Source: a virus (Duplodnaviria; Heunggongvirae; Uroviricota; Caudoviricetes). Taken from it: 54,802 bases of DNA. Where the stretch lies: IMG/VR virus record IMGVR_UViG_3300036766_002280, positions 1-54,802 of that record; one strand, 5' to 3'. The position numbers and the translations under genes were made by a program. Under the pieces are notes generated by a model, which saw only the letters and a list, made by a program, of their open reading frames with translations, was not told where the DNA came from and ran no database searches. This document shows, piece by piece, positions 8,983-54,569 of this stretch. Every line of letters begins with the position of its first letter. Position 1 is the first letter of the stretch.

Positions 8983-9819
8983 GTGCCAGGCACATTCACA
9001 TCGCAGACTTTAACGAACCCGAACCAAAGTTTTATTTTGTTATCAGGGCAAACCAAAAGAATAAAAGTAAACTTCAATAATGCAAACGCAGTTGACTACG
9101 ATCCAGCTATCTTGAGCATCGTTATCTACAGATCAGATAATATAGTTTACAAACAAGAAACTTACAGCCCAAGCGGAACGGTAATCATAAAAGATTCAAC
9201 GGGAAATTACCATATTGATTTTACAGGGGATACTAATTATTTAGGGGACTATCAATTTGTTTGGGCATGGAGAGATAGTTTAACGGGAGATTTTTTTAAT
9301 GGATTTCAGATGGTATCGTTGATTCCAGTGAATGTTATACCGTTAGTTCCAACTCTTCGAAGTCAGTTGGATAAGGCTCAGTTGGATTTGAATACTATTT
9401 TTGGGTACAACGATGAGAATCTGTATATGTATTTGAAAGGAGCAGTAAGTCGTATCAATATGGCTCCACCAAATACTGATCTGACCTTAGTCAACTTTCC
9501 ATACAATATAAATTTCCAGCTCGTAATTGATGTGGCAACTTTTATTGGGCTGGAAGCACAAGGGCTTTTAAGTATCAGCACGGATGCTAATTATAATCTT
9601 CAAGGTAATAGTATGACCGTAGACCACTGGAGTAAGATTTCACAATTTTTAAGTATGCTAGAGAAACGAACTGATCTGTCATTAAGACATTTTAAACTGA
9701 ATTATTTGACAAGGATAGGGGCAGTAAAAAGTGAAAGAGGACCTGGATTTAGACAGGTGAGCATATTTAGTGCCTCTCCCGGAGGAACGTCATTCGGGAA
9801 TTTCATGGGAGTTCGTTAA
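8983..9819 (+). CDS. Putative head-tail adaptor/neck protein with N-terminal Ig-like domain
   Basis: GTG after GGAGG. N-terminal beta-sandwich ('GNYHIDF...DYQFVWAW'), then helical 'YLKGAVSRINMAPP...'. Position upstream of tail genes. Confidence 0.5.
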   Translation: MPGTFTSQTLTNPNQSFILLSGQTKRIKVNFNNANAVDYDPAILSIVIYRSDNIVYKQETYSPSGTVIIKDSTGNYHIDFTGDTNYLGDYQFVWAWRDSLTGDFFNGFQMVSLIPVNVIPLVPTLRSQLDKAQLDLNTIFGYNDENLYMYLKGAVSRINMAPPNTDLTLVNFPYNINFQLVIDVATFIGLEAQGLLSISTDANYNLQGNSMTVDHWSKISQFLSMLEKRTDLSLRHFKLNYLTRIGAVKSERGPGFRQVSIFSASPGGTSFGNFMGVR

Positions 9820-9836
9820 TTTATATCCATATTTAT

Positions 9837-9865
9837 TTGAAATTTACGTTACAATCAAGTATAAT
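9837..9865 (+). promoter_or_regulatory. Sigma70-type promoter directly upstream of the ATG at 9872 (probable leaderless transcript)
   Basis: TTGAAA (9837-9842), 17 nt, TATAAT (9860-9865); ATG 6 nt later; no Shine-Dalgarno. Confidence 0.6.
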
Positions 9866-9871
9866 AATATT

Positions 9872-16556: not shown

Positions 16557-16585
16557 TTGAATTTTTGTAGGAAAATTACTATAAT
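16557..16585 (+). promoter_or_regulatory. Sigma70-type promoter directly upstream of the ATG at 16593 (probable leaderless transcript)
   Basis: TTGAAT (16557-16562), 17 nt, TATAAT (16580-16585); ATG 7 nt later; no Shine-Dalgarno. Confidence 0.6.
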
Positions 16586-16592
16586 TAGTGCT

Positions 16593-18611
16593 ATGATTCC
16601 TAACGATACTTCCATTGTTAATAAGTATAAATCTACGCTTTCGGATCAAAAGCTTGGGGATCTTAATCCAGCTAAAAGGCCCGAAGTTAGACAAAAAATA
16701 AAAGATTCGCTACTCTCTAGAAAGTCCAATTTTGTAATTTTGAACTTATCCAAAGAAAGTCTTCTTGAAGAAATTAGTAATTTATTTTCCAGTAAGGCTA
16801 ACAATATCAAAAGTATTTCATCTTATCTTAGTCATAATACTTCTTTAGCTAAGGAAATAGAGCGCCATACTCCATTTTTAGTCACTGCGAATACTAATCA
16901 ACGACTTTATCATCTCAGGCACAATCTTGTTGAGCAGGGTAAATGCCTAACCTGTTGTAGTATTACTAAATTTGAAAATTATGCTAAAGGATATAGATCT
17001 TGGTGCAGTGTTGAATGCGTTCAAAATTCCACTCAGATTCAGGATAAAAAGAAGAAAACTTCATTTCAAAACTATGGAGCAGAATATGCCTTACAATCTG
17101 AATTAATCCAGAATAGGAAAAAACAAACAAATCTTGAACGATTTGGGGTAGAGGAACCTCTTAAATGTGATACTATAAAAGAAAAAATAAAACAAACAAA
17201 TCTTGAACGATTTGGGGTAGAAAATCCTTTTGAATTAGAGTCGATTCAAGAAAAAATAAGAGTAACAAATCTTGAACGTTATGGGGTAGCCTACCCACTT
17301 CAAAATAAAGAAGTACAAGAAAAAACAAAACAAACAAATCTTGAACGTTATGGAGTAGAAAATCCAGCAAAATCTGTAGAAGTACAAGAAAAAACAAAAC
17401 AAACTTGTTTAGAAAGGTATGGAGTAGAAAATCCAGCAAAATCTGCAGAAGTACAAGAAAGAATTAAGCAAACTAATCTTGAACGTTTTGGCTTTGAGAG
17501 TCCTTTTAAAAATAAGGAAATTAGAGATAAAACAAATAAAAAAATTTTTCAAAAGACTTATTTTAAATTACTGCACAACGATAAATTTAGTACTAAAATC
17601 AGGCCATTATTTTTACTAGAAGATTTCAAAGGGGTAGAATTCAGGTACAAATTTCAATGTCTAAAATGTGAGAATGTTTTTGAAGATAATTTACGAGATG
17701 GCAAAATTCCAAGATGTTGCATTTGTTTTCCTCATGCCAAATCCATATTAGAAAATAACATTCATGATTTTTTAAAATTGTGTAATGTTCCAAATATTTC
17801 TAGGAATTCCAAATCAATTATTCCTCCTCTAGAACTTGATTTGTACCTTCCTAATCATAAATTAGCTATCGAATTTAATGGAGTATTTTGGCATAGTGAA
17901 AACAGTCCTGGAGGCACAAGTCCTCAATATCATCTCAACAAGACTAAACTTTGCGAAGAAAAAGGAATTCAACTTCTTCATATCTTTGAAGATGAGTGGA
18001 TTGAAAAACAAGAGATTGTGAAATCAATTATCAAAAACAAACTAGGTTTAATAGAAAACAAAATCTATGCTCGTAATTGTGAGATCCGAGATGTTAGCAA
18101 CGAAGAAGCCTACAACTTTCTTTTTGATAATCATCTTCAAACTCCTGTAAATTCTAAGCACAATTTTGGATTGTATACTAAAGACAACGAACTAATGTAT
18201 TTGATAGGTTTGTCCAAACCTAGATTCAACAAAAAGTACGAGTACGAATTAGTTCGTTCTTGTCCTAGAATAAGTACTAGTGTAATTGGTGGATTTTCTA
18301 AACTTTTAAACTATGCTGTTAAAACTTTACAAATAAAAAGTTTAGTCAGCTACGTTGATAAACGATACTTTACTGGGTCTGGATACAACGATAAAAATTG
18401 GAAGTTAGCACATGAAACCACTCCGAATTACTTCTACACTACCGGGAATGTTTTAAGGGAATCACGAGTCAAATTCCAAAAACATAAACTAAAGCATTTG
18501 TTTCCCGATTTATACGATGCAAAACTAACTGAATGGCAGATCATGCAGTTAGCCGGATACGACCGTATCTGGGACTGCGGCAACCTAGTATTCGAGCTAA
18601 TTATTCAGTAA
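16593..18611 (+). CDS. Putative Hef-like homing endonuclease: 'ERYGVENP' repeats, zinc ribbon, PD-(D/E)xK domain and C-terminal GNAT/Mom-like domain
   Basis: About 7 'LER(F/Y)GVE(N/E)P'-type repeats; 'CLKCENVF...CCIC'; 'ELDLYLPNHKLAIEFNGVFWHS'; 'LVSYVDKRYFTGSGY...PNYFY...RIWDCGNLVF'. The ORF-track TTG at 16557 is the promoter -35 box. Confidence 0.75.
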   Translation: MIPNDTSIVNKYKSTLSDQKLGDLNPAKRPEVRQKIKDSLLSRKSNFVILNLSKESLLEEISNLFSSKANNIKSISSYLSHNTSLAKEIERHTPFLVTANTNQRLYHLRHNLVEQGKCLTCCSITKFENYAKGYRSWCSVECVQNSTQIQDKKKKTSFQNYGAEYALQSELIQNRKKQTNLERFGVEEPLKCDTIKEKIKQTNLERFGVENPFELESIQEKIRVTNLERYGVAYPLQNKEVQEKTKQTNLERYGVENPAKSVEVQEKTKQTCLERYGVENPAKSAEVQERIKQTNLERFGFESPFKNKEIRDKTNKKIFQKTYFKLLHNDKFSTKIRPLFLLEDFKGVEFRYKFQCLKCENVFEDNLRDGKIPRCCICFPHAKSILENNIHDFLKLCNVPNISRNSKSIIPPLELDLYLPNHKLAIEFNGVFWHSENSPGGTSPQYHLNKTKLCEEKGIQLLHIFEDEWIEKQEIVKSIIKNKLGLIENKIYARNCEIRDVSNEEAYNFLFDNHLQTPVNSKHNFGLYTKDNELMYLIGLSKPRFNKKYEYELVRSCPRISTSVIGGFSKLLNYAVKTLQIKSLVSYVDKRYFTGSGYNDKNWKLAHETTPNYFYTTGNVLRESRVKFQKHKLKHLFPDLYDAKLTEWQIMQLAGYDRIWDCGNLVFELIIQ

Positions 18612-25776: not shown

Positions 25777-26388
25777 ATGGCAGTATTTGCATTAAGTCCT
25801 TGCCTTAAAGCTTTCGTTCTAGCACTTTCTGCCCCATTACGGGCTCAGCTTAGAACTTTGTTGTATACAGCTCAAGGAATTTTAAAGGCTCAAATTGCTC
25901 AGAATGTAGCTTTACTTGGAAGAAATGATATTTCAAAAGCCTTGTACAAAAATGCCGTAGATCAGATTGAGAGCTACCTTAGACCTATAGAGCAGGCAAT
26001 GAATTTGATTCCTTTTTCTGATATGGCAGGATGCGTTGAAGGCAATGTAATGTTGTCCAACGTTCAGAATATTTATTTTCAATACAAAGGAAAGGCTCAA
26101 GATTTTGCTTACAAGTATGCGCAGTACGGATTTGCTAGTACCTATGCCACTAAGACTCAGGATGAGTTAATAAACGCTTTGAATCAGATAACAGGAATAC
26201 TGGATCAATTGGATAATCTAGGGTCGTCCTTAGTAACAATTGGGACAAGGGTACAAGTCTATTCAATAAATAAGATAGGTACGGTAACTGGTTTACCATC
26301 TGGAAATCAGGTTACCGTTACTTTGGATATTCCACCACCAGCAACTATCACAACAGGGGCAGGAGACGTTGGGGTAGTTAATGCTTAG
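25777..26388 (+). CDS. Hypothetical protein (helical N-part, small beta C-domain)
   Basis: ORF abutting the previous stop, in the operon. Confidence 0.5.
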   Translation: MAVFALSPCLKAFVLALSAPLRAQLRTLLYTAQGILKAQIAQNVALLGRNDISKALYKNAVDQIESYLRPIEQAMNLIPFSDMAGCVEGNVMLSNVQNIYFQYKGKAQDFAYKYAQYGFASTYATKTQDELINALNQITGILDQLDNLGSSLVTIGTRVQVYSINKIGTVTGLPSGNQVTVTLDIPPPATITTGAGDVGVVNA

Positions 26389-26441
26389 AATTATAACCCC
26401 TTAGTTAGAAAACTCTTGAGTCTTTAGCTCATGGCTAGTTC
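26388..26441 (+). repeat. 54-bp dispersed repeat, copy 1 (IS200/IS605-end-like hairpin), just upstream of an AAGGAG RBS
   Basis: 48/54 identical to 36558..36611 by direct comparison. Confidence 0.8.
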
Positions 26442-27233: not shown

Positions 27234-28709
27234 TTGGTGGCTATTTTAGACGTATTTCAGATGGTAACACAGCTTCAAAATTTTATTAAAGCTAAAAATC
27301 CACAAGTAGATATACAACCTGGCACGGATTTGTATGATCTTTTATTTTTAACAAATGCTCAAGCTGCCAGATCTTTATTTGAGGCAATAAATACTTTACA
27401 GTTGAATCAAAGCCTATCGACAACGACTGGAACTGATTTAGATTTAATTGCAAAGAATTATAACATAACAAGACGTCCTGCTACGTATGCTACAGGGGAA
27501 GTAACTTTTTACGCAACGTCTTTTTCGACTGATATTTTGATTCCAAGTGGGACAATTGTCAGTACAGCTGGAACAAATGTTACCCCTCCGATTAGATTTT
27601 TGACCACAAAATCGGTTGGAATGGATGTTGTTAATAAAGCTATCTATTACGATTCTACTGCTACAAGATATCAAGTTACGACGCCAATAATTGCTGAATC
27701 TGCAGGCATTTCTTCTAATGTTGATACCCAGATTATAAATCAGATTGTTTCTCCAGTAGCTAATATTAGTGGGGTAGTAAATAATACTCCTACAATTGAT
27801 GGAACAGCACAAGAAACTGATGCCCAACTTCAGCAAAGATGTCTTCAAGCCTTTGTTGTCGGTAGCGTAGGAACTTTGTATGGGTATAGAAAATTACTAA
27901 CTGATAACTATACACAAGTGCTGGATGTTAAATCTATTGGCCCATTTGATACTGGTGCTATTAGAACAGATGGGGTAGATACTTTTGTGATTCTTTCCTC
28001 TACTTCCTCTGCTGGTAACAGCATCCAAACGTCCGAAACTTTCGTTTTTAATACGGGAGATACTGGGTACGTTCCAGTTAATAGACCTGTAATTACTATT
28101 GATACCGTATATGGCACAGCGACAGGGGCGGTCAGAACTTTTATACCATATCCGAATGCTTTCCCAGATTATAAATATGTAAAAGATACTACAGGGGCAT
28201 ACGCTATGTCAGTTCAATCAGCGGATAAACTTTTGTGGCTGTCTGGAATCAAACCTGATACAAATTCAAGTGTTTTAATTACTTATACTTATAACAGTCT
28301 GGTTCAGACTATGCAAACGTTTATGAATCGGGATGAAAATAAAGTGGTAGGTGCTAATGCCTTAGTTAAGCTAGGCTTCATAGCACAGACATATATAACT
28401 TTGTCTGTAAAATACTTTTCAACTGTAACAGATACTGGAGCTGCTCAGACTAAAGTTGCTGCAGCAATTACACAATATTTGTCGTCTTTTACATTTGGGC
28501 AGCAACTAGATTTATCTGATCTTATAGTAGTTGTTCAGACTGGAGCTTTTACTGATTATACTATAACAGAAGTAGATTACGTAGTTTTTAACACAGCTCA
28601 AATGTATGCAATTGTTCCTGATCTTGGGTATACCCTACCGATGGTCAACGACGTTATTATAGTTTCAGCCAACCAGTACATCCGTGAAGGACTAACTGTT
28701 TTTGTATAA
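27234..28709 (+). CDS. Baseplate J-like wedge protein
   Basis: 'LDLIAKNYNITRRPATYATGEVTF', 'IPSGTIV', 'GTAQETDAQLQQR'. Confidence 0.9.
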   Translation: MVAILDVFQMVTQLQNFIKAKNPQVDIQPGTDLYDLLFLTNAQAARSLFEAINTLQLNQSLSTTTGTDLDLIAKNYNITRRPATYATGEVTFYATSFSTDILIPSGTIVSTAGTNVTPPIRFLTTKSVGMDVVNKAIYYDSTATRYQVTTPIIAESAGISSNVDTQIINQIVSPVANISGVVNNTPTIDGTAQETDAQLQQRCLQAFVVGSVGTLYGYRKLLTDNYTQVLDVKSIGPFDTGAIRTDGVDTFVILSSTSSAGNSIQTSETFVFNTGDTGYVPVNRPVITIDTVYGTATGAVRTFIPYPNAFPDYKYVKDTTGAYAMSVQSADKLLWLSGIKPDTNSSVLITYTYNSLVQTMQTFMNRDENKVVGANALVKLGFIAQTYITLSVKYFSTVTDTGAAQTKVAAAITQYLSSFTFGQQLDLSDLIVVVQTGAFTDYTITEVDYVVFNTAQMYAIVPDLGYTLPMVNDVIIVSANQYIREGLTVFV

Positions 28710-30549: not shown

Positions 30550-32580
30550 GTGCCTTCTAGTAGTTTATACGGTTCCGGTTTATACGGTGCTGGTATATAC
30601 GGTGGACAGCCAAGCAACTCTGTTTATATTCTTTCCTCTGTTTATCTAGCGCCAACAATTACAGAATCAAAATATATTCAAAGCACTGCTTTGATACAAG
30701 GAGTATCAAAGCAGTATATTCAATCAACGGCATTTTTAGAAGCTCATAAAGCTAAGTATTTACTGTCGTCTGTTTCACTTTGGCAGAAATCAAACTACAT
30801 AGCTTCTAGAGCATTTGTACAGACTACTTCTTATAGCTATATAGCTTCAAAGATACTTCTAACTGTAGAACTTTTACAGTATGAAGTTGATGAGTTTCAG
30901 GTAATTGTAGATAAACAATATGTTAAGTTTTATTGGAAGGATACATCCCCAGGAATTGGAAAGACTTATACTATTTATGATTCTTCCGATTCTGGAACGA
31001 CCTGGAATACAATTAATAGTACTACAAGCACAGAATATCAATTAAATAGTATTCCATTTGATATTCCGAGTAGAATTTATAAGATTACGATTACATCAGG
31101 ATCTAGGGTTAGTTATGGGTTTTTAAGTTACCCTACTTTTAGTTTTAGAAAGGTGTTGAATGCTCTTGACAATGGATATTGGGATACTGATCCAAATTCA
31201 AATGTTTATAAAATTCATCAAGGGATAACGAAGGAGACAAGTACAAGAGCTGAACTTGAAATAAGTTATACCAGGCAAGACGAAAGCATTCTTCGTATTA
31301 GAAATTCTCGTATAAGCGATGTCTACGGAGTAGCTTTTGATCAACAATCTTCTACGATTGATGAAGACTATAGAAGAAAAATTTGGAATTTGTTCGAAGG
31401 TTTTAGAAATTCCTTAACCTATACAGGTGCCTACGATGCTACAAAAGCCTTTACGCATATTCCACCAAGAATTAAAAAGTTATCTCAAGATGGATGGATT
31501 CTTGGTCGACGTTACTTAGGAAAAGATACGATTCCGTTATCTAATTTAACGGCTTTGTATGGAGTAAAATTTGAAGTTCATTTGTACAAACTGGCATCAG
31601 GAGGGGTCAGTACCACAGCAGATAGCACTACTACATTCGATGCCACTTCAATAAGTGGGGATAGTTTTAATCAGCTTACTAACTATTATAAAAACAAATA
31701 TCTAGTTTTCAATACAGGAAATAATGCTTATAAAAGCAGAAGAATAGCTTCTTATTCAGCCATTACTAGTTCCGTGAGTAGATTTGTAACAGATCCTTTT
31801 GTTTCTAATTCTACTTCTGGGGATACCTTTTTTGTTTCAGAGGCTTCAACTGATGTAATAGAAAAATATATTAAAGAGGTGATACCCCTTCATTCGTCTG
31901 CCATCTTTTTATATTTTTCTGATTATGCCACTGAGAATCAGAGCACTGGATTTACTGGTACTCTTAGCAATATTGAAAAAATTCCTTCTTCCAGATTAAG
32001 GGTTTTAAATATAAACAATACTGTGGATGATGAGGGGAAAAATGTTCAAGCTGTATACGAATCTGGTGTGACTTTATCAAGTGTTTATCCATTAAGTAGT
32101 TTTGGTGGAAATGGAGTTGTTTGTTGGGATTCTATTTTATGGGGAGAATCTCCTGCAGATTTTAGATTGTATGTTTCTTACGCTAGCGATCTTATGGCAC
32201 CAAACTGGACTTATCAATCAGGAGTTACCCAGTATGTACAATTAAATGGTTTGCAAGATGTTTCATTAGTTGAGTATATAAAAACTAATTCAGAAGTAGT
32301 TGCCGCTGCAGATACTACGGGCTTTAATTATATAAGAAATGTAGATTATGTTATGGATTATCGAAATGGAACAATTAGAAGAGCTGTAAACAGTGGCATA
32401 CCAACAGGACAAATTGTTTCTGTTCGCTATGATAGTGAGTGGGGTCAAATGGCTCAAAATCAATCCCTAGATTTTGGGGCGGGAAGAAATTATTTCAAAT
32501 ACAAATTTACAATTAATGGTTTATCAGACCGCGACGACTTCGAGTTCAGTGGTTTTTACATTAAAAAATTAGCGCCGTAG
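30550..32580 (+). CDS. Baseplate wedge/tail protein (gpI-like region plus Ig-like domains)
   Basis: GTG after AAGGAG; 'EDYRRKIWNLFEGF', 'IEKYIKEVIPLHS' gpI-like motifs; located between J and the fibre. Confidence 0.6.
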   Translation: MPSSSLYGSGLYGAGIYGGQPSNSVYILSSVYLAPTITESKYIQSTALIQGVSKQYIQSTAFLEAHKAKYLLSSVSLWQKSNYIASRAFVQTTSYSYIASKILLTVELLQYEVDEFQVIVDKQYVKFYWKDTSPGIGKTYTIYDSSDSGTTWNTINSTTSTEYQLNSIPFDIPSRIYKITITSGSRVSYGFLSYPTFSFRKVLNALDNGYWDTDPNSNVYKIHQGITKETSTRAELEISYTRQDESILRIRNSRISDVYGVAFDQQSSTIDEDYRRKIWNLFEGFRNSLTYTGAYDATKAFTHIPPRIKKLSQDGWILGRRYLGKDTIPLSNLTALYGVKFEVHLYKLASGGVSTTADSTTTFDATSISGDSFNQLTNYYKNKYLVFNTGNNAYKSRRIASYSAITSSVSRFVTDPFVSNSTSGDTFFVSEASTDVIEKYIKEVIPLHSSAIFLYFSDYATENQSTGFTGTLSNIEKIPSSRLRVLNINNTVDDEGKNVQAVYESGVTLSSVYPLSSFGGNGVVCWDSILWGESPADFRLYVSYASDLMAPNWTYQSGVTQYVQLNGLQDVSLVEYIKTNSEVVAAADTTGFNYIRNVDYVMDYRNGTIRRAVNSGIPTGQIVSVRYDSEWGQMAQNQSLDFGAGRNYFKYKFTINGLSDRDDFEFSGFYIKKLAP

Positions 32581-32594
32581 ATGGAGGATTTTAA

Positions 32595-34874
32595 ATGAAA
32601 AGAACTGAGTTTGCAAACCTTGTCCTTGTAGCTATGGAAGATCTCAACAACTTAGCACAGTATTATGTCCAAGCAATTAAAGAACGTTCAAACGCTGCGA
32701 CTACTGGAACAGATCCAACAGGGGTAACTACTCCTGCTTATAATGGAATTGTAAAGTCCTCAACTGATTTACTACTGACATCGATTTCTCCTAGTCCTAA
32801 TGTTACCATAACAACTGGAGCTGCTTATACTAGATTCGATCCTACTTCTGTAACTCAAAGTAGTAATCAGTATAATGGTGGGGAAAGAGTTGGTTTGGCA
32901 TCTTCTATTGCCGCACCAATTAAAAATACTTCAGGGCATAGCTATTTCTTTTTAGTATACGCAGAGTTACGTAAGAGTAAAAAGTATGATGAAAGTGGAG
33001 TAAATGCTTATTTTGTAGATAGACCAGAATCTTACCTAGTAGTTCAGATGACTGCAGCAGAAGCAACAGCTCTAGGATCCTATACAATCAATCCTACAGG
33101 AACAGTTACGGTTACCAATGTTGCGGCTCCCCATCTAGATTCAGTTTTAAGTAATGCTGAAAAAAGTGCCACTTTTAGTGGTTGGACTTACTTAAGTGGG
33201 GTATTTACTGTTACTAGTTTTACTGTTACTCAGTACAATTCTGTTTATTTAGGACATATGAATGCTACTGCTTATTCAGCTCCAAATGTTACTTACACAG
33301 TTGATGCTAGTTCTCAGGTTCTTGGATCTAGTACGTTTTCTAGACCACTTTTTTCTACTGTTGATCAGCTTCATAGAACTCAGTTAGGAAGAGGTACTTC
33401 TTCTACTACTAATCCTCATGGTATGCTTATTCAGGATCTTGGTAATTTAGATGATATAAGGGAACTTATTAGTTCTGGTATAATTCCTAAGTTTACTGGT
33501 TCATTAGCATGTGTTGTCAACGGAGTTTCAGGAAATGTTGTTATTACCAATTTATCTGGAATAGATTATTTGTTTATGGATGGAAAAAGGGTCACTACAG
33601 TAAGTCCTCTTACCATTGCTGTTTCTGGTATGACCGCAGGTATTAACTATGTTTACGTTCAAATACTAGGAACAGTTCAAACGCAAGGAACAGCACCATG
33701 GAACTATTACATAGGAAGCGTTGTTGCGGCAACTTCGGTTCCAAGTTCAAATGCTTTTGTGTTATGTTCAGTATATGTTTCAGGTGGTATTGCTTATGCC
33801 TATAATGGAGATACAAGATATGTTGCAGGTAGTACTACTAATCCAGTAACAGATCTAAGAGTGTTTGGAGTTGATGGATATGATTATCTTCACAGTACTT
33901 TGTATGAATCCATTAACAAAGAAAATATGATTCCAAACGGAAGTATGCAAGCAAGTGAAAGAGGAAAAATAAAAGGATGGGTAACAGGAGCAATATCTAC
34001 GTTACTTCCTGCAAGCGGAAGTACAGCTTTGTATGCTTCTGCTGTGGATGATAGTCTCTTATTTCCTTTTGATGCTAATATTGATTATGCTTTTCGTGTT
34101 AAGGTAAATACACGTCCAACTCCTTCCACAACTGGTGCTTCTACTTATACTATTAAGTTGTTATTATTTAGAGGAAAAGATCGATCAAAAGATCTAGTTG
34201 GTCAATATACTTTAGTTTCTGAAGTTGCTCAAACTCATTCTACTTGGTTTTCTCCCTCAGTTACTGATTTTTTATCAGGATCTGCTATATCGGCAAGTAG
34301 TCCACCAGCACCTGGTACTTTTGATCCAAACGTTGCAGATAGAAGTGCAATTGGCTGGGCATGTATTGAAATTACCCCTACTGTAGGGGTAATCAACCTT
34401 GTAGACATGATTCTACGTCCTAAGATGCAAACTAGTGATATAAGTAATCTTGCTGTTACTACAGCTAAAATTGCTAACGCAGCTGTAACAGAAACACAGT
34501 TAGCTACAAGCGTTGCTGGATATGCTTTAACAGGTGGCGGAGGAACTCCATTAAGTGTTGTCGCGGATGAATCTTCATTAACAGTTGATACTGTAGGAGA
34601 TTTAATTAAGATAAAACCAGCAGGTGTTACAACTTCTCATGTTAATACTTCTTCCGAAATTGGACGTGTTATTGTTAATGGAACTGTTATGCTGGATAGT
34701 GCTGGTGAAAATATAGGGTCAGCTCTTAGACTTGCATTTGGTGGGGTTACCTACTATGTTCCAGGATGGACCTCAGCCAATGGTTGTGGATGCACCTGTA
34801 CTTGTACAGGAAACTGTGGTTGCACTTGTACTTGTGCTGGGGATTGTGGATGCACTGGAACTTGGGGAAATTAA
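32595..34874 (+). CDS. Tail fibre-like protein with Cys-rich periodic C-terminal tail
   Basis: GGAGG RBS; follows the baseplate wedge genes. Fibre hallmarks 'TTNPHGM', CBM-like 'NMIPNGSMQ', 'VTTAKIANAAVTETQLA'. Ends CGCTCTCTGNCGCTCTCAGDCGCTGTWGN. Confidence 0.7.
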   Translation: MKRTEFANLVLVAMEDLNNLAQYYVQAIKERSNAATTGTDPTGVTTPAYNGIVKSSTDLLLTSISPSPNVTITTGAAYTRFDPTSVTQSSNQYNGGERVGLASSIAAPIKNTSGHSYFFLVYAELRKSKKYDESGVNAYFVDRPESYLVVQMTAAEATALGSYTINPTGTVTVTNVAAPHLDSVLSNAEKSATFSGWTYLSGVFTVTSFTVTQYNSVYLGHMNATAYSAPNVTYTVDASSQVLGSSTFSRPLFSTVDQLHRTQLGRGTSSTTNPHGMLIQDLGNLDDIRELISSGIIPKFTGSLACVVNGVSGNVVITNLSGIDYLFMDGKRVTTVSPLTIAVSGMTAGINYVYVQILGTVQTQGTAPWNYYIGSVVAATSVPSSNAFVLCSVYVSGGIAYAYNGDTRYVAGSTTNPVTDLRVFGVDGYDYLHSTLYESINKENMIPNGSMQASERGKIKGWVTGAISTLLPASGSTALYASAVDDSLLFPFDANIDYAFRVKVNTRPTPSTTGASTYTIKLLLFRGKDRSKDLVGQYTLVSEVAQTHSTWFSPSVTDFLSGSAISASSPPAPGTFDPNVADRSAIGWACIEITPTVGVINLVDMILRPKMQTSDISNLAVTTAKIANAAVTETQLATSVAGYALTGGGGTPLSVVADESSLTVDTVGDLIKIKPAGVTTSHVNTSSEIGRVIVNGTVMLDSAGENIGSALRLAFGGVTYYVPGWTSANGCGCTCTCTGNCGCTCTCAGDCGCTGTWGN
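34785..34874 (+). repeat. Cys-rich decapeptide repeat CGCTCTC(T/A)G(N/D) x2.3 (10 Cys in 29 residues)
   Basis: Direct translation of residues 731-759. Confidence 0.95.
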
Positions 34875-34875
34875 G

Positions 34876-35805
34876 ATGGAAATGATTCAGTTTGAAGTAA
34901 ATATGGCAAACACTTGTCCCATGCAGTGCCACAATTGCTTGATGTCTAAGTACAGACCTGCTCAAGATATTATGGCAGAAGTTATTGCTGCCGTAGATAA
35001 AGAGTTTCCTGTATTCACGTGGATTACTGGCGGAGAACCAAGTCTATTTCCAGATAAAATCGAACTGTATCTTAAAAATGGTAATATTTGTCAGATGCCT
35101 AGTGCTGGAGTATACAATGAAGACCAACTGGTTGGACTATTGGAAAAGTATCCAAACTTTAGACGAATAAATGTTTCAATTCTAGGAACGCAGGAGTATG
35201 AAAAAGAATTTAGAAAAGTGGATAAGAATTACAAACGAAATTGGATGTGGAAAGTTGGAAGGGATCGTTTAATGATCATGTTTGTAATCTTTAAAGAGTC
35301 TGTAGACAAAGAACAGATTTATAAAAATATAGATTATGTATTTAAACATTACCATTATTTTCCGATAATGATTTACTATGATAGATATTCAGAGCATGAC
35401 CCATCTGGAATAGATGCCTTCGATCAAGAAGAATTGATTGAGTATGGTCATTATATCAAAGACAAACAGCTGTACTACAACTGCGAAGTTCAAATTTATC
35501 CAGTGAGGGTACTTAGACCAACCGTGTTTGCAAGTGGATCCAACCTAATGTTCTATCATGGTAAAATATCACATTCAATTCCTGCTGAAGAAGTGTTGAA
35601 AGATCCTGCAGGATTTGTTCATACTCTAATGTCCAGTCATTATCTTAATTCAATTGATACTTCAAAAAATTGCGATGTTCATAAACAGTATCAATGTGGT
35701 GGTCCATTTTGTAGGCTAGGATATAAACAAGATTGTAGAAATTATTGGTCTCAGTTTATTATTCCTTCCAGAGAAATAAAAACAAGATCTTTTTCTTTGA
35801 AATAA
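34876..35805 (+). CDS. Radical SAM protein A with C-terminal SPASM/twitch-like Cys cluster
   Basis: CxxxCxxC 'TCPMQCHNC'; 'ITGGEPS'; C-terminal 'CDVHKQYQCGGPFC...DC'. ATG 34876 lies 1 nt after the fibre stop; the ORF-track start at 34732 overlaps the fibre. Confidence 0.9.
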   Translation: MEMIQFEVNMANTCPMQCHNCLMSKYRPAQDIMAEVIAAVDKEFPVFTWITGGEPSLFPDKIELYLKNGNICQMPSAGVYNEDQLVGLLEKYPNFRRINVSILGTQEYEKEFRKVDKNYKRNWMWKVGRDRLMIMFVIFKESVDKEQIYKNIDYVFKHYHYFPIMIYYDRYSEHDPSGIDAFDQEELIEYGHYIKDKQLYYNCEVQIYPVRVLRPTVFASGSNLMFYHGKISHSIPAEEVLKDPAGFVHTLMSSHYLNSIDTSKNCDVHKQYQCGGPFCRLGYKQDCRNYWSQFIIPSREIKTRSFSLK

Positions 35806-35816
35806 ATGGAGGAAGT

Positions 35817-36125
35817 ATGGCATTAAGTCAATCAGTACAGCAGGTAGGTATTATAATTGATAGATATTTTTTAAAGGACGTTCCACTGTCAAGTGTTGAT
35901 ACTGCCTTAGTTGGAATGACCGTTACAGATATGGTGGGATTTTTTGATCAGCATGGAAGCACGATTATGCCTCAAAGAGTATTTTCACTTCTTCTTAGAG
36001 GTTTGTCCAGAGCAAATCCAACTTATAAGGTTTGGTTTTTGAGTTCAGAATACATTCAGGCAATTCTAGCTAATACTGCTACTATAACTGAAGCATCTAA
36101 TATAATTCAGGAGTTGATACTATGA
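35817..36125 (+). CDS. Hypothetical protein (102 aa) in the radical SAM cassette
   Basis: ATG at 35817 after GGAGG. Confidence 0.6.
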   Translation: MALSQSVQQVGIIIDRYFLKDVPLSSVDTALVGMTVTDMVGFFDQHGSTIMPQRVFSLLLRGLSRANPTYKVWFLSSEYIQAILANTATITEASNIIQELIL

Positions 36126-36547
36126 ATATAAAGTTGATAGAGTTTGCCGTTACGGATCCACTGCCTACGAATTTTCCTGTTTATGGATCAGTTGGATTTG
36201 TGGACTACTTAAGGGATGCTTCTCTTTTTGCTGCAGGGGATGCTATTTATTGTCCAGTACGAGCATCCTTAGGAAGAGGCATTCGGGAGTTGTATGTAAA
36301 TTTTAATGCTCAGTTATTTAATTATACGGTAAGTGCCTTTAGTAGTGTTATTCTGAATCATTTGTGGGGATCTCCAACTCAATTTAAAAATGATCTAACT
36401 CAATTAATTTCAGTTAATCTAAATTTTGTTTTGATTTTGGCAGGTTCTCTGGAAGATTTTGATTTAGTAAGACAGCTTGGAGCTGGATCGTTTTATACAG
36501 TTGTGGTAACATACGATGCAGGGTTAGATAATCTTAAAGTTGTGTAG
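36122..36547 (+). CDS. Hypothetical protein (141 aa) in the radical SAM cassette
   Basis: ATGA-coupled to the previous gene. Confidence 0.6.
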   Translation: MNIKLIEFAVTDPLPTNFPVYGSVGFVDYLRDASLFAAGDAIYCPVRASLGRGIRELYVNFNAQLFNYTVSAFSSVILNHLWGSPTQFKNDLTQLISVNLNFVLILAGSLEDFDLVRQLGAGSFYTVVVTYDAGLDNLKVV

Positions 36548-36557
36548 ACAAATAATC

Positions 36558-36611
36558 GAATTATAACCCCTTAGTGAGAACCCTCTTGAGTCTTTAACTC
36601 AGGGGTAGTTC
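36558..36611 (+). repeat. 54-bp dispersed repeat, copy 2 (IS200/IS605-end-like hairpin ending GGGGTAGTTCA), just upstream of the AAGGAG RBS of radical SAM B
   Basis: 48/54 identical to 26388..26441. Confidence 0.8.
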
Positions 36612-36625
36612 AAGGAGATAAGATA

Positions 36626-38017
36626 ATGCAAGTGCAATCATCAGCGTATATTCATGGAAAATTAGGAAATACCTCATCGTTTGTAGTCTACTATCCAAAT
36701 ACGAATGTCTACGAGATTGCTAACGATTTACCGGGCATTTCTTTCGATTTTGGGGATAAATACCAACACCTCATTTGGAAACTTTTCAAGTTATCTAGAA
36801 CCCTTCAAATCTACAATGAAACTTTTGAAACAGACAGAAACTATACCCTGTTTATTGAACCGTACGGAACTTGTAATCTGAAATGTTCTTACTGCTATGA
36901 AAAAGATAGTTGGTTCAATAAAAATAAGTTGGAGTATGATCGTATTGTCGAGGTCATCGGACTTTACAAAGTGAAAGATATTCGAATCTTTGGTGGAGAA
37001 CCATTCCTTGATGAGCAAATGATTTTGAGGCTGTTCAAAGAGTATCCAGATATGGAGTACCATGTTTCTTCCAATGGCATTCCTATCACAGAAAGAATTG
37101 TTGAAGCTCTGAATGAGGTACAATGCAATTTGCAATTGAGTCTTGAACCAGAAGAATGGAAGCAGAGAGTTAACTACGTTGAAACGACTCAGATGGAATT
37201 GCTTGAGCCAAAATGGAAGATAATAAGAAAATATAGAGGAAGACTTTCTGTCCGGGTTACTATTCCCTGTGATATGGATATTCCGTATGTATCTTTTATT
37301 GATTTTGTGGATAGAATTGCGGAGAAGAAAGGCGATTACAATTTTTCTTTGTCGCTTTGGCCTTCAGCAGGACAAAAACTTCCAGTGTGGTTTGATAAAG
37401 TGTTGGAAGAAGGCCAGATAATTTTGGACGATCCAGAACTTAGAAAGAAAATGTATGATAAATTTGTTTGGACTTCTTATATTAGCAGGTTCAAAGAATT
37501 CACCAGATTTCCTTGGTACATGGCAAATTGTAATGCAGGCAGTAGTTCAATCAGCTTGGCTCCAAGTGGAATGCTATATGGTTGCCACGAAGACGCAGTC
37601 ATTGAGAACGAGGCATCTTTAATTGGAGCAAAAACTGTTGACCCTGATAAACAATTCAAAGTGATTAGCGAGTATATAAGAGCAGCGAATACAAAAAAAG
37701 AATGTCCAACGTGCGATGCCCGGTATATGTGTGGCGGTATTTGCTATACAAAAGAAATTGATAGTGCTTGCGACTATTCCAGAAAGATAATGCCCTTACT
37801 GATGAGGTGGATGCCTTTGGCTGTATCCAGGCAGTTACCAAGTTGGGAAGGAAAAACAAAGGAATTTGAGACTTTTATTAAAATGAATATGACTGAGTTG
37901 GATTTGTTCTTTCAGGAGGAAGTATGGAATCAGTATTGTTGTGGGGAGCTACCAAAGGAAAAGGTTCTGGAGTTGGGGAAAGTGTTGCAAAGTCTCTTAT
38001 CGCAAAAGACAAGTTAG
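36626..38017 (+). CDS. Radical SAM/SPASM protein B (peptide-maturase/anSME-like) with N-terminal extension
   Basis: 'TCNLKCSYCY', 'IFGGEPFL', SPASM motifs 'CNAGSSSISLAPSGMLYGCH' and 'CPTCDARYMCGGIC...AC'. Confidence 0.92.
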   Translation: MQVQSSAYIHGKLGNTSSFVVYYPNTNVYEIANDLPGISFDFGDKYQHLIWKLFKLSRTLQIYNETFETDRNYTLFIEPYGTCNLKCSYCYEKDSWFNKNKLEYDRIVEVIGLYKVKDIRIFGGEPFLDEQMILRLFKEYPDMEYHVSSNGIPITERIVEALNEVQCNLQLSLEPEEWKQRVNYVETTQMELLEPKWKIIRKYRGRLSVRVTIPCDMDIPYVSFIDFVDRIAEKKGDYNFSLSLWPSAGQKLPVWFDKVLEEGQIILDDPELRKKMYDKFVWTSYISRFKEFTRFPWYMANCNAGSSSISLAPSGMLYGCHEDAVIENEASLIGAKTVDPDKQFKVISEYIRAANTKKECPTCDARYMCGGICYTKEIDSACDYSRKIMPLLMRWMPLAVSRQLPSWEGKTKEFETFIKMNMTELDLFFQEEVWNQYCCGELPKEKVLELGKVLQSLLSQKTS

Positions 38018-38556
38018 TAATCCTTGCAGGTAGAAACGAGCAAAAATTATTAAAACTTAGTTCTGAAGTTGGTTATCCCGCTGATAGCCAATATACATTC
38101 GTTTCTGGTTATCCATTAGATCCGATTCTGTATCAAAACATACTGGAAAAGCACAATATTAGAACAGTAATAAGTTTTATTGGAGTAGGCTACGCAGAGG
38201 CACTTCCATTCCTCGATGATACTTTGATTGCCGATATGGTTCAAAGTAATTTTTTGGTAAATCTTGACATTATTAAAAAATCAATTATCCCGTTGAAACG
38301 AAGGCATAGTACAATTATTATTGCAAATTCTATTGTTGGAATGCTTCCTCATGAGGGATCTTCCGTCTATACAGCGAGTAAATTTGCACTAAGAGGACTG
38401 ATTGAAAGCGCTAGAATCGAGCTAAGAGAATTTAACGTAGGTTTATGTAGTCTATATTTTCAAAACGTCAAAAGAGCAGGAATGGATTCTCTGGTTGATT
38501 GTATTTTAACCGCTAGTAAGAACGCTCCTTTGAACTTCGATTTTGTAATTAGCTAG
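37924..38556 (+). CDS. Short-chain dehydrogenase/reductase (SDR)
   Basis: Gly-rich 'GATKGKGSGVG', 'VILAGRN', catalytic 'YTASKFAL' (YxxxK); overlaps radical SAM B by 94 bp. Confidence 0.85.
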   Translation: MESVLLWGATKGKGSGVGESVAKSLIAKDKLVILAGRNEQKLLKLSSEVGYPADSQYTFVSGYPLDPILYQNILEKHNIRTVISFIGVGYAEALPFLDDTLIADMVQSNFLVNLDIIKKSIIPLKRRHSTIIIANSIVGMLPHEGSSVYTASKFALRGLIESARIELREFNVGLCSLYFQNVKRAGMDSLVDCILTASKNAPLNFDFVIS

Positions 38557-38908: not shown

Positions 38909-38938
38909 CTTGATTTTGTATTCAAAATATTATAATAT
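38909..38938 (+). promoter_or_regulatory. Conserved phage promoter motif CTTGATTTT...TATTATAATAT (copy 1)
   Basis: Same two blocks recur at 41623, 46536 and 54609, each intergenic and upstream of a gene. Confidence 0.65.
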
Positions 38939-38955: not shown

Positions 38956-39237
38956 ATGAATCAAAAAGATCTTCAAAAGAGAATTCAAGAGTATATAAAA
39001 GAAAATGGAATTGATAAATTCAATGAGTTAATTATGAAAAATATTTTTCTAAAGTACTTGGGTTTAGGAGATGGTGTGATGGTGGTCAAACCTACAAAGA
39101 AAAGGGTTCAGTTGGTGGATATTTCTCTATCTAAAAGCAATAAAAGATATTTTTTTGAAGTGGGTGGAAAGAGCACGGAGCTTACTGAAGTTCAGGCTGA
39201 GATTTTTGAAGTACAGAAATTGTTTTTAAACAGGTAA
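38956..39237 (+). CDS. Hypothetical protein
   Basis: AGGAG RBS, downstream of the promoter motif. Confidence 0.55.
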   Translation: MNQKDLQKRIQEYIKENGIDKFNELIMKNIFLKYLGLGDGVMVVKPTKKRVQLVDISLSKSNKRYFFEVGGKSTELTEVQAEIFEVQKLFLNR

Positions 39238-51743: not shown

Positions 51744-54569
51744 ATGTGTACGTTAGGAGGGTTTGTAGCTGGAAAAGATGGTAAAGTGGATTCAAGAATT
51801 TTTAATCAAATTCTTAAGAACATGGACCTACGAGGTAGAGATGCCTTTGGGGTAGTTCTAAAAAGCTCTGGTCTAGAAACAATAAAATTTGTTTGTGACA
51901 ATGTAAAAGATCTTATTGCTAATTTCAACCAGCCGATGGATCTAGGCACTCTTGAGTTTGTATCTATGACAGGAAGAGCTATACCTGCTGCAGAACGTGT
52001 AATGGGAACTATCAATGTTAAGCGAGATACCCAGCCTTTTGTGTACAAAGATTTTATCGTATCTCATAATGGATTACTGAGCAATGATGATATACTAAGA
52101 TCGTCTTTCAATATTACAACGGAGTCTCCTGTTGATACAGCAATCATTCCTCGTCTGATAGATTTTTTCAAAGATAATTATTACAGCAATACGACTATGC
52201 ATGTTATCAATAACGTAATCAAAGGATCTTATGCTTTAAGTGTTATTGATACGGACAAAGACAAAATTACTTTGGCAACTAATTTTATGCCTCTTTATTA
52301 TCAGTTTCATCATAATGTTTTGTACTGGGCATCAGATCCAAAGCAATTACCAAATGGTAAACAGCTTGATTATTATTCTGCGTTAGAATGGTATTGGAAT
52401 TCTTTATCAATCGATGGGTATTCTGTTCATTCAAATTATTCCCTACATAATAAGTTGGATTCAAATAAGGTGCTTGTGATTTGTTCTGGTGGGTTAGATA
52501 GTGTTACTACGTTAAAATTGTACAAGACGCTTGGGCTCAATGTAACGATGGTTCATTTTAGGTATGGACAAGCTGCAGAAGAGGCGGAAGAATGGTCTAC
52601 TGCAAAAATTGCAAAAATAGTCGGAGTAGAAAGAATTGTTCTAGATGTAAAGGATTTGTTCGGCCACACTATTCCAAGCGTACTTCTCGGAAACAAAACG
52701 ATTGAACATGACCGTCAACTGGATATGGAGTCAACTTTAAGTTACGTGGGCTGCCGTAATTTGTTGTTTACTTCGATCACTATGGGGTTAGCTGAGAAAC
52801 TTGGAGCTGGGAAAATTAGTTTGGGCTTGAACTTAGATGACAGTGTTTTTGGAAGTACCCAATTTTTAATAAGACACGAAGATAAAATTGTTAGAAAGAC
52901 TATAGCAGAGATAGAATCAGAAAATTTAACTAATCTAAGTGTTTTATCGATGAATAGAGAAAACTATAAACTAGAAGAGAAAAAGATAACAAAGGTCTGG
53001 AAACATTCTGTTAAGAAAAAAGCATTTGAAATTAGAACAAAAAATAATGTTGTATTAAAAATATCAGAAAGTCATGGTATTTTTAAGTTAAACTGCAGTT
53101 CTTTTAAAATTGAATCTGTTTGTGGGAAAAATATAGTAGTTGGCGATTATCTGATTATGTCTAAAAATCAGTTAGTAAATTCGTCGGATACTTATTTTAA
53201 GGATCAGCTTGTTGAGGTTAGATCCAAATCGGTTGTTTATTCAGTTCCTTTAACTTCTACCGTTTTAGAATTTTTAGGATTATGGATTGCTGATGGATGT
53301 TATGATAGCCACAGCGTGAAAATCAGCTGCAACAAAAAAGAATTTGATACCGAATGGTGGGATAGGTTAATTAAAGATTTGCAGATCAGATCCTATACTA
53401 CCCAGGAAATAAATAATTCAATCGATGGAACTATTAATAGTGTTAAATTAAAACGATGGATGGAGCAATCTGGTTTTGAAGGTTATAGTCATACAAAAAT
53501 AGTTCCTGAATGGATATACAATTTGACATCTAAACAGATTTCGAGTTTTTTAAGAGGATATTTTAGTGGAGATGGATGTGTTTGTAGTAGAAGTAAAACT
53601 ATTCAAGCAAGCAGTGTATCTTCTGGGTTGATTCAGGGCATAAGAAGTTTACTTCTTCAGTTAGGTATTTTTTCAACGATATATGATGGTATTGAAGGAG
53701 GGCCAGGATATATTTTTAATAAAATATATCAACTTAAAAAAAGTTATGAGCTAGTTATAAGAGGTATAGATAATATTAAAAATTTTAAAAATATTGGATT
53801 TTTGCAAGTAGAGAAAAATAATAAAGTATTAAAAACTTCAAATTTAATTATTCAAGATCATTTTCATAAAATCCCAGTAGCAAAAGAAGTTTTAAAAAAA
53901 GTACGAAGTCAAAAAGGTTTGTTTAGTAAGTTACCTTATTTAGCAAATTTGTATGAGCAAGTAGGAATTAATAGAAATCATTTAAGAACTATTAGTAAGT
54001 TAATTAATAATAAAAACTTAGAGATTTTAGCTGACAGTGAAGTTTATTTTGTGCCAGTAATATCTGTTAAAGAAATCCCAATGGAAGAGTACGTTTATGA
54101 CTTTAGCGTAGAGGATAATGAAAACTTTTTCGATGCTAATGGAATTCTTTACCATAATTCCGTGTATTCGGACAACAACATTACCTTTCTACGAGAGTTT
54201 ACAAAATTAAGTGCCTGTTCTATGGATGTAGGCGCCCGAGTAGAAGTTACCGCCCCGTTTGTAAATTTGACAAAAAAAGAGATTTTGGAAATTGCCTTCG
54301 CAATCGGATCTCCCTTAGAATATCAGGTTTCGTGTTATTATCCACAGTTGATCAATGGAAAGATAATGGGTTGTGGGGACTGTGGATGTGACAAATTACG
54401 AGAGTATAGTTTCAAAGCTTTAGGCATCAAAGACCCGGTTGAATACCTTAAACCTATCGATTGGGGAACTTGCAGGTCGATTGAAGAGGTCTATCCTGAT
54501 TATCAAAAACATTTGAATTCTTCTACTCTACCTCCTTCCATTCCTTACTACAAATATTTGAATTTGTAA
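51744..54569 (+). CDS. queC: Glutamine amidotransferase (Ntn, class II)-QueC fusion (GAT-QueC), interrupted by an intein
   Basis: N-terminal 'MCTLGG' (Cys nucleophile after Met removal), 'RGRDAFG', 'DTQPF...VSHNGLL'. QueC PP-loop 'VICSGGLDSVT', 'HFRYGQ', 'YVGCRNL', 'APFVNLTKKEI', 'SCY...CGDCGC'. Confidence 0.9.
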   Translation: MCTLGGFVAGKDGKVDSRIFNQILKNMDLRGRDAFGVVLKSSGLETIKFVCDNVKDLIANFNQPMDLGTLEFVSMTGRAIPAAERVMGTINVKRDTQPFVYKDFIVSHNGLLSNDDILRSSFNITTESPVDTAIIPRLIDFFKDNYYSNTTMHVINNVIKGSYALSVIDTDKDKITLATNFMPLYYQFHHNVLYWASDPKQLPNGKQLDYYSALEWYWNSLSIDGYSVHSNYSLHNKLDSNKVLVICSGGLDSVTTLKLYKTLGLNVTMVHFRYGQAAEEAEEWSTAKIAKIVGVERIVLDVKDLFGHTIPSVLLGNKTIEHDRQLDMESTLSYVGCRNLLFTSITMGLAEKLGAGKISLGLNLDDSVFGSTQFLIRHEDKIVRKTIAEIESENLTNLSVLSMNRENYKLEEKKITKVWKHSVKKKAFEIRTKNNVVLKISESHGIFKLNCSSFKIESVCGKNIVVGDYLIMSKNQLVNSSDTYFKDQLVEVRSKSVVYSVPLTSTVLEFLGLWIADGCYDSHSVKISCNKKEFDTEWWDRLIKDLQIRSYTTQEINNSIDGTINSVKLKRWMEQSGFEGYSHTKIVPEWIYNLTSKQISSFLRGYFSGDGCVCSRSKTIQASSVSSGLIQGIRSLLLQLGIFSTIYDGIEGGPGYIFNKIYQLKKSYELVIRGIDNIKNFKNIGFLQVEKNNKVLKTSNLIIQDHFHKIPVAKEVLKKVRSQKGLFSKLPYLANLYEQVGINRNHLRTISKLINNKNLEILADSEVYFVPVISVKEIPMEEYVYDFSVEDNENFFDANGILYHNSVYSDNNITFLREFTKLSACSMDVGARVEVTAPFVNLTKKEILEIAFAIGSPLEYQVSCYYPQLINGKIMGCGDCGCDKLREYSFKALGIKDPVEYLKPIDWGTCRSIEEVYPDYQKHLNSSTLPPSIPYYKYLNL
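52842..54158 (+). mobile_element. Intein with LAGLIDADG endonuclease (439 aa) in QueC
   Basis: Starts 'SVFGSTQF' (Ser1); block B 'ISESHGIF'; LAGLIDADG motifs 'FLGLWIADG' and 'FLRGYFSGDG'; ends 'YVYDFSV...ANGILYHN', followed by Ser(+1). Confidence 0.92.

Follow-up and report, generated by a model that had tools for sequence, protein, structure and literature searches.

A 54,802-nt stretch of viral DNA (hereafter the window), taken from the start of a 118.8-kb IMG/VR virus record (IMGVR_UViG_3300036766_002280) and covering its first 54.8 kb, contains a gene for a 759-amino-acid (aa) protein of the tail-fibre type that ends in a cysteine-repeat tail. This gene is directly followed by a cassette specifying two radical S-adenosylmethionine (SAM) enzymes, here called A and B, two small proteins and a short-chain dehydrogenase/reductase (SDR) (Table 1). 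A preliminary description of this DNA had proposed that the neighbouring radical SAM enzymes act on the tail of this structural protein as their substrate. When related loci were compared, radical SAM genes were found to accompany the tail and to be missing where an orthologous fibre lacks it. This linkage and co-loss, together with the kinship of the enzymes, support the proposal.

A cysteine-repeat tip module and its linkage to radical SAM genes

The last gene of the baseplate/fibre block had been reported to end in a Cys-rich tail, and this was confirmed: the final 29 residues of the 759-aa protein include 10 Cys, the other 730 residues having only 3. The tail is composed of three roughly decapeptide units in which Cys mostly alternates with Thr or Gly; the units differ in their codons and are therefore not a recent product of slippage. 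Residues 1 to ~640 correspond to a shaft/attachment part common to the orthologues, and residues ~640-759 to a swappable tip module, a self-contained unit made up of a conserved beta-type stretch and the tail of alternating Cys and Thr/Gly. An exhaustive HMMER search rendered four full-length orthologues (P0009-P0012) with 40-51% identity. When identity to the window protein was calculated in windows along the sequence, all orthologues showed values of 40-60% up to about residue 600-640; beyond residue ~600-650, three Cys-tail orthologues stayed at 30-68% while three tail-less ones fell to 10-16%. The break in similarity sits exactly at the tip module, as a clean domain swap would have it.

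The 759-aa protein had no match in Pfam, PHROG or NCBIfam, and no match among GenBank phages in a tblastn search. Close relatives of the fibre and of enzyme B were also sought in IMG/VR by means of peptide patterns, and none was found. Proteins sharing residues 606-690, the shaft repeat region, gave weak, sub-threshold matches to Pfam repeats. The distal position in the baseplate module and the modular architecture are those of a fibre, and the orthologue P0012 is followed by a Phage_tail_APC gene. In another collection, the window DNA lies on a contig of ~212 kb from a sediment metagenome, and the sequencing runs listed as containing it were DNA from sediment metagenomes, with no RNA run among them; the protein is probably the distal tail fibre of an uncultured sediment phage of roughly 200 kb.

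HMMER with the fibre also matched several proteins over their last ~100 residues only. Combining HMMER, a profile search and two degenerate DNA scans, the tip module was detected on at least 17 distinct fibre-type proteins of 312-854 aa, the parts N-terminal to the module being unrelated between most of them. Its layout was roughly Y.G..Y.DS…VG.AL.VVFGG.TYYVP, followed by a short linker and then by 7-12 Cys in 21-37 residues. Across the family, Thr was the commonest residue between the Cys (44%), and Gly accounted for 23%. The DNA scans, which looked for CGCTCTC and CGCTCTCTC peptide runs, returned mostly microsatellite-type noise, from which true members were picked by frame, open reading frame (ORF) length and pre-Cys motif; a pattern scan of prokaryote contigs (one genome per species) rendered no true member among the 80 matches listed. 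The conserved pre-Cys stretch is a candidate enzyme-recognition element. The orthologue P0009 has a C-x3-spaced tail in place of C-x-C on the same fibre shaft, so the two kinds of tail appear to be interchangeable.

Co-occurrence and co-loss of tail and enzymes, which the preliminary description had named as a check on its proposal, came out in favour of it. All 11 informative Cys-tail loci had between one and four radical SAM genes within ~2.5 kb downstream of the fibre gene; locus L008 was left out of this count since it ends 177 nt after the gene. Four radical SAM genes were present in L005, L006/L007, L012, L013, G002-G004 and the complete 363.5-kb phage G001, three plus an SDR gene in the P0162 contig, two plus an SDR gene in L010/L011, and two in L009, where the contig then ends; the window itself has A, B and the SDR, and in L313 a homologue of A starts directly after the stop codon of the Cys-tail fibre. 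In contrast, none of the three tail-less orthologous fibres (P0010, P0011 and P0012, from syntenic phages of ~210 kb) was followed by a radical SAM gene. In a syntenic phage of ~209 kb, the fibre P0012 is followed by a Phage_tail_APC chaperone gene, at the place where the window has the cassette, and by an SLT gene; in P0011 the fibre gene is followed by an 86-aa ORF and SLT, and in P0010 a custom hidden Markov model (HMM) found no radical SAM gene in 10 kb downstream. In the tail-bearing P0009, four radical SAM genes are inserted between the fibre and the same SLT gene. Tip module and enzymes thus appear to move between phages as one cassette, sitting where relatives encode a fibre chaperone.

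As a background control, an HMM derived from the cassette enzymes was run on 76 viral loci hit by chance (672,530 nt), in which no radical SAM ORF was found. The same HMM gave two to four matches in every family locus, and recognized only A and B in the whole window. The family loci belong to records of 47 kb to 363 kb that differ in their baseplate genes and enzyme sets; since the Cys-tail loci are on clearly different phage backbones, the association is not one inherited accident.

A Cys-repeat tail was also found free of any fibre. Locus L308, covering 1.1 kb of a GC-rich 35.7-kb metagenome contig, contains a 99-aa ORF (230-529) that has a strong ribosome-binding site and closes with Cys-repeat decapeptides like those of the fibre tail. 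The gene for a B-like enzyme (674-1124) begins 145 nt downstream; its first 118 residues, which take in the N-terminal extension, share 29% identity with B (E 2e-19). No homologue of the 99-aa peptide turned up in a search. The pair looks like an ordinary precursor plus maturase of the type that makes peptides synthesized on ribosomes and modified post-translationally (RiPPs), possibly a cellular or free-peptide version of the system. The presence of a free peptide next to a B-like enzyme supports the idea that the fibre tail is a grafted 'core' region, and ties this type of tail to RiPP logic.

Some of the loci had arrangements of their own. In the 363-kb phage G001 (L119) and in L013, the four maturase genes are flanked by two of the fibre family (551 and 750 aa in G001, 509 and 717 aa in L013), of which only the upstream one is Cys-tailed. 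The cassette of the P0004/P0162 contig includes a 714-aa protein with two Radical_SAM domains, apparently a fusion of two maturases, and this contig also bears a gene for a TnsA-like endonuclease between genes of the fibre block. In L002, an IS605-type TnpB (OrfB) gene (1-861) is located directly 5' of the radical SAM A homologue, at the position expected for the fibre; the contig begins inside the TnpB gene, and the fibre falls outside the readable DNA.

The cassette enzymes and their closest known systems

The more complete of the two radical SAM enzymes is B, which is likely the main maturase. The SPASM motif (CX9-15GX4C … CX2CX5CX3C … C) binds two auxiliary 4Fe-4S clusters; B contains all seven Cys (302, 320, 360, 363, 369, 373 and 382), and scored 36.1 bits on TIGR04085 (SPASM), for which the cut-off is 27. 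Its best NCBIfam matches were PapB (59.5 bits, cut-off 340), the SCIFF maturase (47 bits, cut-off 425) and QhpD (43.9 bits, cut-off 453), and it also matched nif11 and CbpB maturases far below their cut-offs. B is below the cut-off of every curated family and is therefore a relative rather than a member, so that function is not automatically transferable. A profile of B and its relatives, compared with solved structures, placed CteB first (E 1.6e-29), followed by SkfB (7e-19). The AlphaFold2 (AF2) model of B had a pLDDT of 83.5, with a barrel that aligned to CteB and anSME; Foldseek ranked CteB first, then ChlB, TigE, anSME, SkfB and SuiB. In VIA-align, B and CteB aligned over 341 residues (Z 22.4; model residues 4-398), while anSME aligned only from residue 71. 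The N-terminal ~70-80 aa of B form an extension of three strands and a long helix in the AF2 model, which falls within the aligned range of CteB and TigE but not of anSME, these ranges being given by their end points only. This is suggestive, in that the ~70-residue extension may correspond to the peptide-binding domain of CteB. A co-fold of B with the fibre tail, three 4Fe-4S clusters and SAM scored 0.00, the tail partner being poorly folded, so that binding is neither favoured nor disfavoured by it. Enzymes of the B family were present in most loci, close ones in L002, L005, L010 and the P0004 contig, and distant ones in G001, G002, L012 and L013. In tblastn searches of GenBank phages, B and the B-like enzyme of G001 rendered only radical SAM genes with 20-25% identity, from uncultured gut phages, Campylobacter phages and others; Salmonella phages were not among them.

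Enzyme A scored 24-25 bits on Pfam Radical_SAM (PF04055), below the cut-off of 29.5, and it, too, stayed under every curated family cut-off. It was assigned to the superfamily because of its motif, a match to PHROG 1802, a profile match to SkfB and its fold matches. The sactisynthase SkfB was its one significant relative of solved structure (profile E 1.5e-8), and the AF2 model, of moderate quality (pLDDT 67), had CteB, anSME, PqqE and SkfB as top fold matches. A has no N-terminal extension. Its C-terminal cluster of four Cys (266, 274, 279 and 287) suggests one auxiliary cluster of the twitch-like type; having four C-terminal Cys only, A is therefore not a SPASM enzyme, and at most twitch-like. 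Homologues were found in L002, L005 (two copies) and L313, so that A is present in the window and three further loci. Judged by these profile and fold comparisons, both A and B appear nearest to peptide thioether synthases.

Neither of the two small proteins encoded between A and B could be assigned to a family. The Atlas model of the 102-aa protein was of low confidence, as was the alpha/beta model of the 141-aa protein; L002 and L005 have proteins of similar size at the position of the latter, without detectable similarity to it. Library scans gave no match to a PqqD or RiPP recognition element (RRE) family for B or for either small protein. The 102-aa protein was considered as a PqqD-like recognition element, and no support for this was found.

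The first 94 nt of the SDR gene coincide with the 3' end of B but are read in another frame (37924-38017). An overlap of 97 nt occurs in L002 (5627-5723), the SDR of which is 56% identical to that of the window. The long overlap is real and conserved, since the overlapped N-terminus carries the conserved Gly motif of the Rossmann fold. SDR genes also occur in L010/L011 and the P0004 contig, and accompany the close B subfamily.

These components appear to work like several known pairs of enzyme and substrate, namely SCIFF/CteB, PapA/PapB, QhpC/QhpD and CrpA/CrpC, without belonging, by their scores, to any of these curated families. In the SCIFF/thermocellin system (CteA and CteB; PDB 5WGG and 5WHY) a Cys-rich substrate is encoded beside its enzyme, CteB being the solved enzyme closest to B. 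However, its substrate is a peptide of ~45 residues with six Cys in forty-five, whereas here it would be the end of a 759-aa protein with a far denser C-x-C tail; the window system, moreover, is phage-encoded and adds a second enzyme, the SDR and the two small proteins. The CrpA/CrpC pair of Methanococcus voltae (PMC13692751, 2026) and the QhpC/QhpD pair of quinohemoprotein amine dehydrogenase resemble it in having ranthionine thioethers on the Cys-rich C-terminal part of a protein encoded next to the enzyme, and QhpD and CrpC are SPASM radical SAM enzymes that put thioethers on protein-sized substrates (PMC13692751). Those substrates are cellular proteins of archaea or bacteria with other Cys motifs, no sequence kinship below the level of the superfamily was detected, and the papers on the two systems make no mention of phages.

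In the PapA/PapB (freyrasin) system, PapB makes repeated Cys-to-Asp thioethers in a repetitive core. PapB, the best NCBIfam match of B, was also that of the B-like enzyme of G001 (126 bits, against the same cut-off of 340); its substrate differs from the structural protein of the window in having a C-x3-D core motif rather than C-x-C. The CXXX-repeat system (TIGR04114/TIGR04117 targets; TIGR04115 and TIGR04119 maturases) is the nearest in concept: Cys repeats also lie beside radical SAM enzymes, and the P0009 tail has the same C-x3 spacing, but the repeat of the window is C-x-C and not C-x-x-x. Neither the fibre nor the P0009 tail matched the NCBIfam models of the CXXX targets. The distant B-like enzyme of G001 scored 71.7 bits on TIGR04115 (cut-off 350) and 50.9 bits on TIGR04119 (cut-off 150), the best values in the related loci; TIGR04115 was not among the 25 best families of the window B. 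As to the usual definition of a RiPP, the enzyme is adjacent, but in place of a short precursor there is a 759-aa protein with a C-terminal core, the short 99-aa form being found only in L308.

Among phage proteins, the tips of T4 gp37 and gp12, at the far end of a trimeric fibre, carry a repetitive motif in which every second residue is a ligand. Their ligands are His (HxH) rather than Cys, there is no sequence similarity, and the window tail has no HxH repeats. The HxH motifs of T4 gp37 bind iron, and the T4 fibre needs the chaperones gp38 and gp57A, not radical SAM enzymes.

Proposed maturation of the fibre tip and alternative explanations

On balance, we favour the idea that the cassette enzymes install thioether cross-links in the Cys-tail fibre tip, the module serving as their in-cis substrate. 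Late in infection, in the reducing cytoplasm, B (CteB/PapB-like) and A (SkfB-like) would act on the Cys tail of the newly made fibre. Each would cleave S-adenosylmethionine and take a hydrogen atom from a nearby residue (Thr, Gly, Asn or Asp); the carbon that lost it would then be joined to a Cys sulfur, rendering a thioether (sactionine or ranthionine) that links residues of one chain or of different chains of the fibre trimer. The outcome would be a covalently stapled receptor-binding tip, resistant to protease and redox. A thioether is favoured because the link made by CteB runs from Cys to the C-gamma of Thr (PMC8172795), and Thr is the residue most often found between the Cys of these tails. 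The SDR may add a second redox step on the tail. A bolder version, possible but doubtful at present, is that in large phages from sediment, groundwater and freshwater habitats inter-chain thioethers weld the fibre tip's three chains together, and that module and maturases are exchanged as one host-range cassette in place of a chaperone. Such a staple would be comparable in principle to the chainmail of the HK97 capsid, here installed by RiPP-type enzymes.

Several observations weigh against thioether maturation of a fibre tip. The identification of the 759-aa protein as a fibre is drawn from position, synteny and modular architecture, and no fibre family model matches it. The chemistry is deduced from distant homology (16-18% identity to CteB), with scores far below the curated cut-offs, and no RRE was detected by sequence in the cassette, the two accessory proteins having no family. 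Enzyme sets also differ between loci (A occurs in four only, and the four radical SAM enzymes of L006 are unrelated), and a single pairing of enzyme and tail is therefore not proven. The SDR has no role in canonical thioether formation, and other or additional chemistry is therefore likely. To our knowledge, Cys at every second residue is denser than in any characterized sactipeptide or ranthipeptide; a strict C-x-C pattern would put all thiols on one face of a beta-strand, which also suits metal binding.

The enzymes could instead act on the same substrate through a different radical chemistry: conversion of Cys to formylglycine (anSME type), epimerization (YydG/EpeE type), C-C or C-O cross-links, or a multi-step route using the SDR. 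The enzymes anSME, the epimerase EpeE, SuiB and ChlB were among the strong fold matches of B (Z 15-21), and no curated cut-off was reached. Two to four differing radical SAM enzymes are present per locus, with an SDR in four loci, which hints at reactions of more than one type. We nevertheless regard this as rather unlikely, since a thioether synthase, CteB, was the best match of B by both profile and fold, and SkfB the only significant one of A; Cys-rich cores typify the thioether-forming SPASM systems (SCIFF, PapA, CrpA and QhpC), and the tail contains no anSME recognition motif (C/S-x-P-x-R). The tail might instead be a metal-binding needle, the Cys of three chains lining the trimer axis and holding a metal or iron-sulfur-type clusters, with the radical SAM genes assisting or serving some other purpose. 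The placement of the thiols on one strand face is in line with this, metal sites are established in the trimeric tips of T4 gp37 and gp12, and metal binding is also suspected for modified CrpA in the study describing it (PMC13692751). A needle of this kind would, however, leave unexplained why the tail comes with one to four radical SAM enzymes and why these are lost along with it; a role of radical SAM enzymes in metal insertion is not known, and the free peptide of L308, with no fibre shaft to trimerize it, still keeps its enzyme. This explanation seems improbable.

A different view is that the cassette works on another target (a small neighbouring protein, a component of the host envelope or a cofactor), and is linked to the tail only because both are part of a mobile fibre-tip cassette. 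Hitch-hiking is conceivable in a fibre tip region, a known hot spot of recombination; the enzyme sets are heterogeneous, and accessory ORFs of no known family always lie between fibre and enzymes. But the accessory proteins vary across loci and none is Cys-rich, which leaves the Cys tail as the one constant partner; related enzymes have Cys-rich peptides encoded beside them as substrates, and L308 pairs a B-like enzyme with a Cys-repeat peptide alone. Little probability is thus assigned to this view. Still less is given to a cleavable precursor, in which the shaft would be a giant leader and the modified Cys end would be cut off, either as a released peptide (toxin or signal) or as a discarded intramolecular chaperone. 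Many fibres and tailspikes do shed a C-terminal chaperone domain after trimerization, the tail-less P0012 has a chaperone gene at the cassette position, and L308 contains a free 99-aa form resembling a precursor. Against this, neither the window cassette nor any of its 10 related counterparts was found to contain a protease or transporter gene for leader removal or export, and the pre-Cys stretch (inspected by eye in alignment A1) lacks the Ser-Lys dyad context of self-cleaving fibre chaperones.

The preliminary description had stated that no phage fibre is known to be matured in this way. Literature searches agreed, and found no paper on a phage structural protein matured by radical SAM enzymes; one cyanophage paper counted a radical SAM 'maturase' among antibiotic-synthesis genes and made no connection to fibres. 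The enzyme logic is known, and what is new is the class of substrate and the biological setting. If thioether maturation of the fibre tip is correct, it would represent a new class of virion post-translational modification and would extend RiPP-type thioether chemistry to a large viral structural protein, the first protein-sized cellular example, CrpA, dating from 2026. It would also explain why some fibre tips travel with enzyme genes instead of chaperones, and would put into the hands of protein engineers a small, transferable 'tag plus enzymes' set with which protein ends could be cross-linked. Predicting host range and producing such fibres heterologously would then fail without a supply of the maturases.

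Organization of the gene block and neighbouring features

The large genes of the window are all on the + strand. The order given in the preliminary description (fibre gene, radical SAM A, two small ORFs, radical SAM/SPASM B and overlapping SDR) and the single nucleotide separating the fibre stop from the start of A were both verified in the sequence. The wedge gene anchors the block as a baseplate/fibre module, PF04865 (Baseplate_J) being found at the matching position in syntenic relatives. It is followed by genes of 228, 125, 257, 676 and 759 aa in that order; the 759-aa gene is therefore the last large gene of the baseplate/fibre block. In L006/L007, L121/L122 and the P0012 contig, the gene 5' of the fibre encodes an orthologue of the 676-aa protein (673-675 aa); Pfam and PHROG scans rendered no family match for the 676-aa protein.

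Table 1. Positions of the fibre-type gene, the proposed maturase cassette and associated features in the window
Feature	Position	Strand	Remarks
Baseplate wedge gene (gp6 / Baseplate_J type)	27234-28709	+	PHROG 6 baseplate wedge subunit, E 1.2e-35
676-aa structural protein	30550-32580	+	Directly 5' of fibre gene; kept in syntenic relatives
759-aa distal tail-fibre-type protein	32595-34874	+	Assigned by position, synteny and modular architecture; stop TAA 34872-34874
C-terminal tip module (residues ~640-759)	34512-34871	+	Conserved pre-Cys stretch, then Cys repeat
Cys-repeat tail	34785-34871	+	Proposed core (substrate) region
Radical SAM A, 309 aa	34876-35805	+	CxxxCxxC at 14/18/21; ATG 34876
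102-aa accessory protein, helical	35817-36125	+	L002 homologue with 30% identity, E 1e-11; weak one in L005
141-aa accessory protein	36122-36547	+	Start overlaps stop of 102-aa ORF by 4 nt
54-nt element	36558-36611	+	In 78-nt gap 5' of radical SAM B; ends 3 nt before AAGGAG ribosome-binding site
Radical SAM/SPASM B, 463 aa	36626-38017	+	CxxxCxxC at 83/87/90; Pfam 51-53 bits
SDR, 210 aa	37924-38556	+	PF00106 53.3 bits (cut-off 26.6); GxxxGxG at residue 8; YxxxK at 149

Spacing is tight throughout the fibre/maturase block, with a 1-nt gap and overlaps of 4 and 94 nt, and no promoter or terminator signal above shuffled background was found in it. The cassette is probably co-transcribed, and by its layout appears translationally coupled to the fibre gene. 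An early-type promoter had been described at 38909. A consensus-like candidate, TTGATT-N15-TATAAT, is indeed present at 38910-38936, ahead of a 93-aa ORF at 38956, though it exists as a sequence match only; the consensus scanner missed it because of its 15-nt spacer. It likely marks the end of the late fibre/maturase operon. The 54-nt element preceding B has a second copy at 26388-26441, 89% identical, and includes a small hairpin (CCCCT…AGGGG enclosing GAGT…ACTC). A late promoter of the phage or a hairpin in a 5' leader is a possible role for it.

Two ORFs in the structural region of the window (9770-11404 and 16557-18611) gave homing-endonuclease/HNH matches plus a head-closure match; inteins in late genes, or homing endonucleases inserted into them, may account for this. 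In the same phage record (G000), outside the window, two further radical SAM genes unrelated to the cassette were found at 58103-58981 and 91939-92685. One of them is QueE-like (248 aa), which fits a QueC fusion at 51744-54569; the other specifies a 292-aa enzyme.

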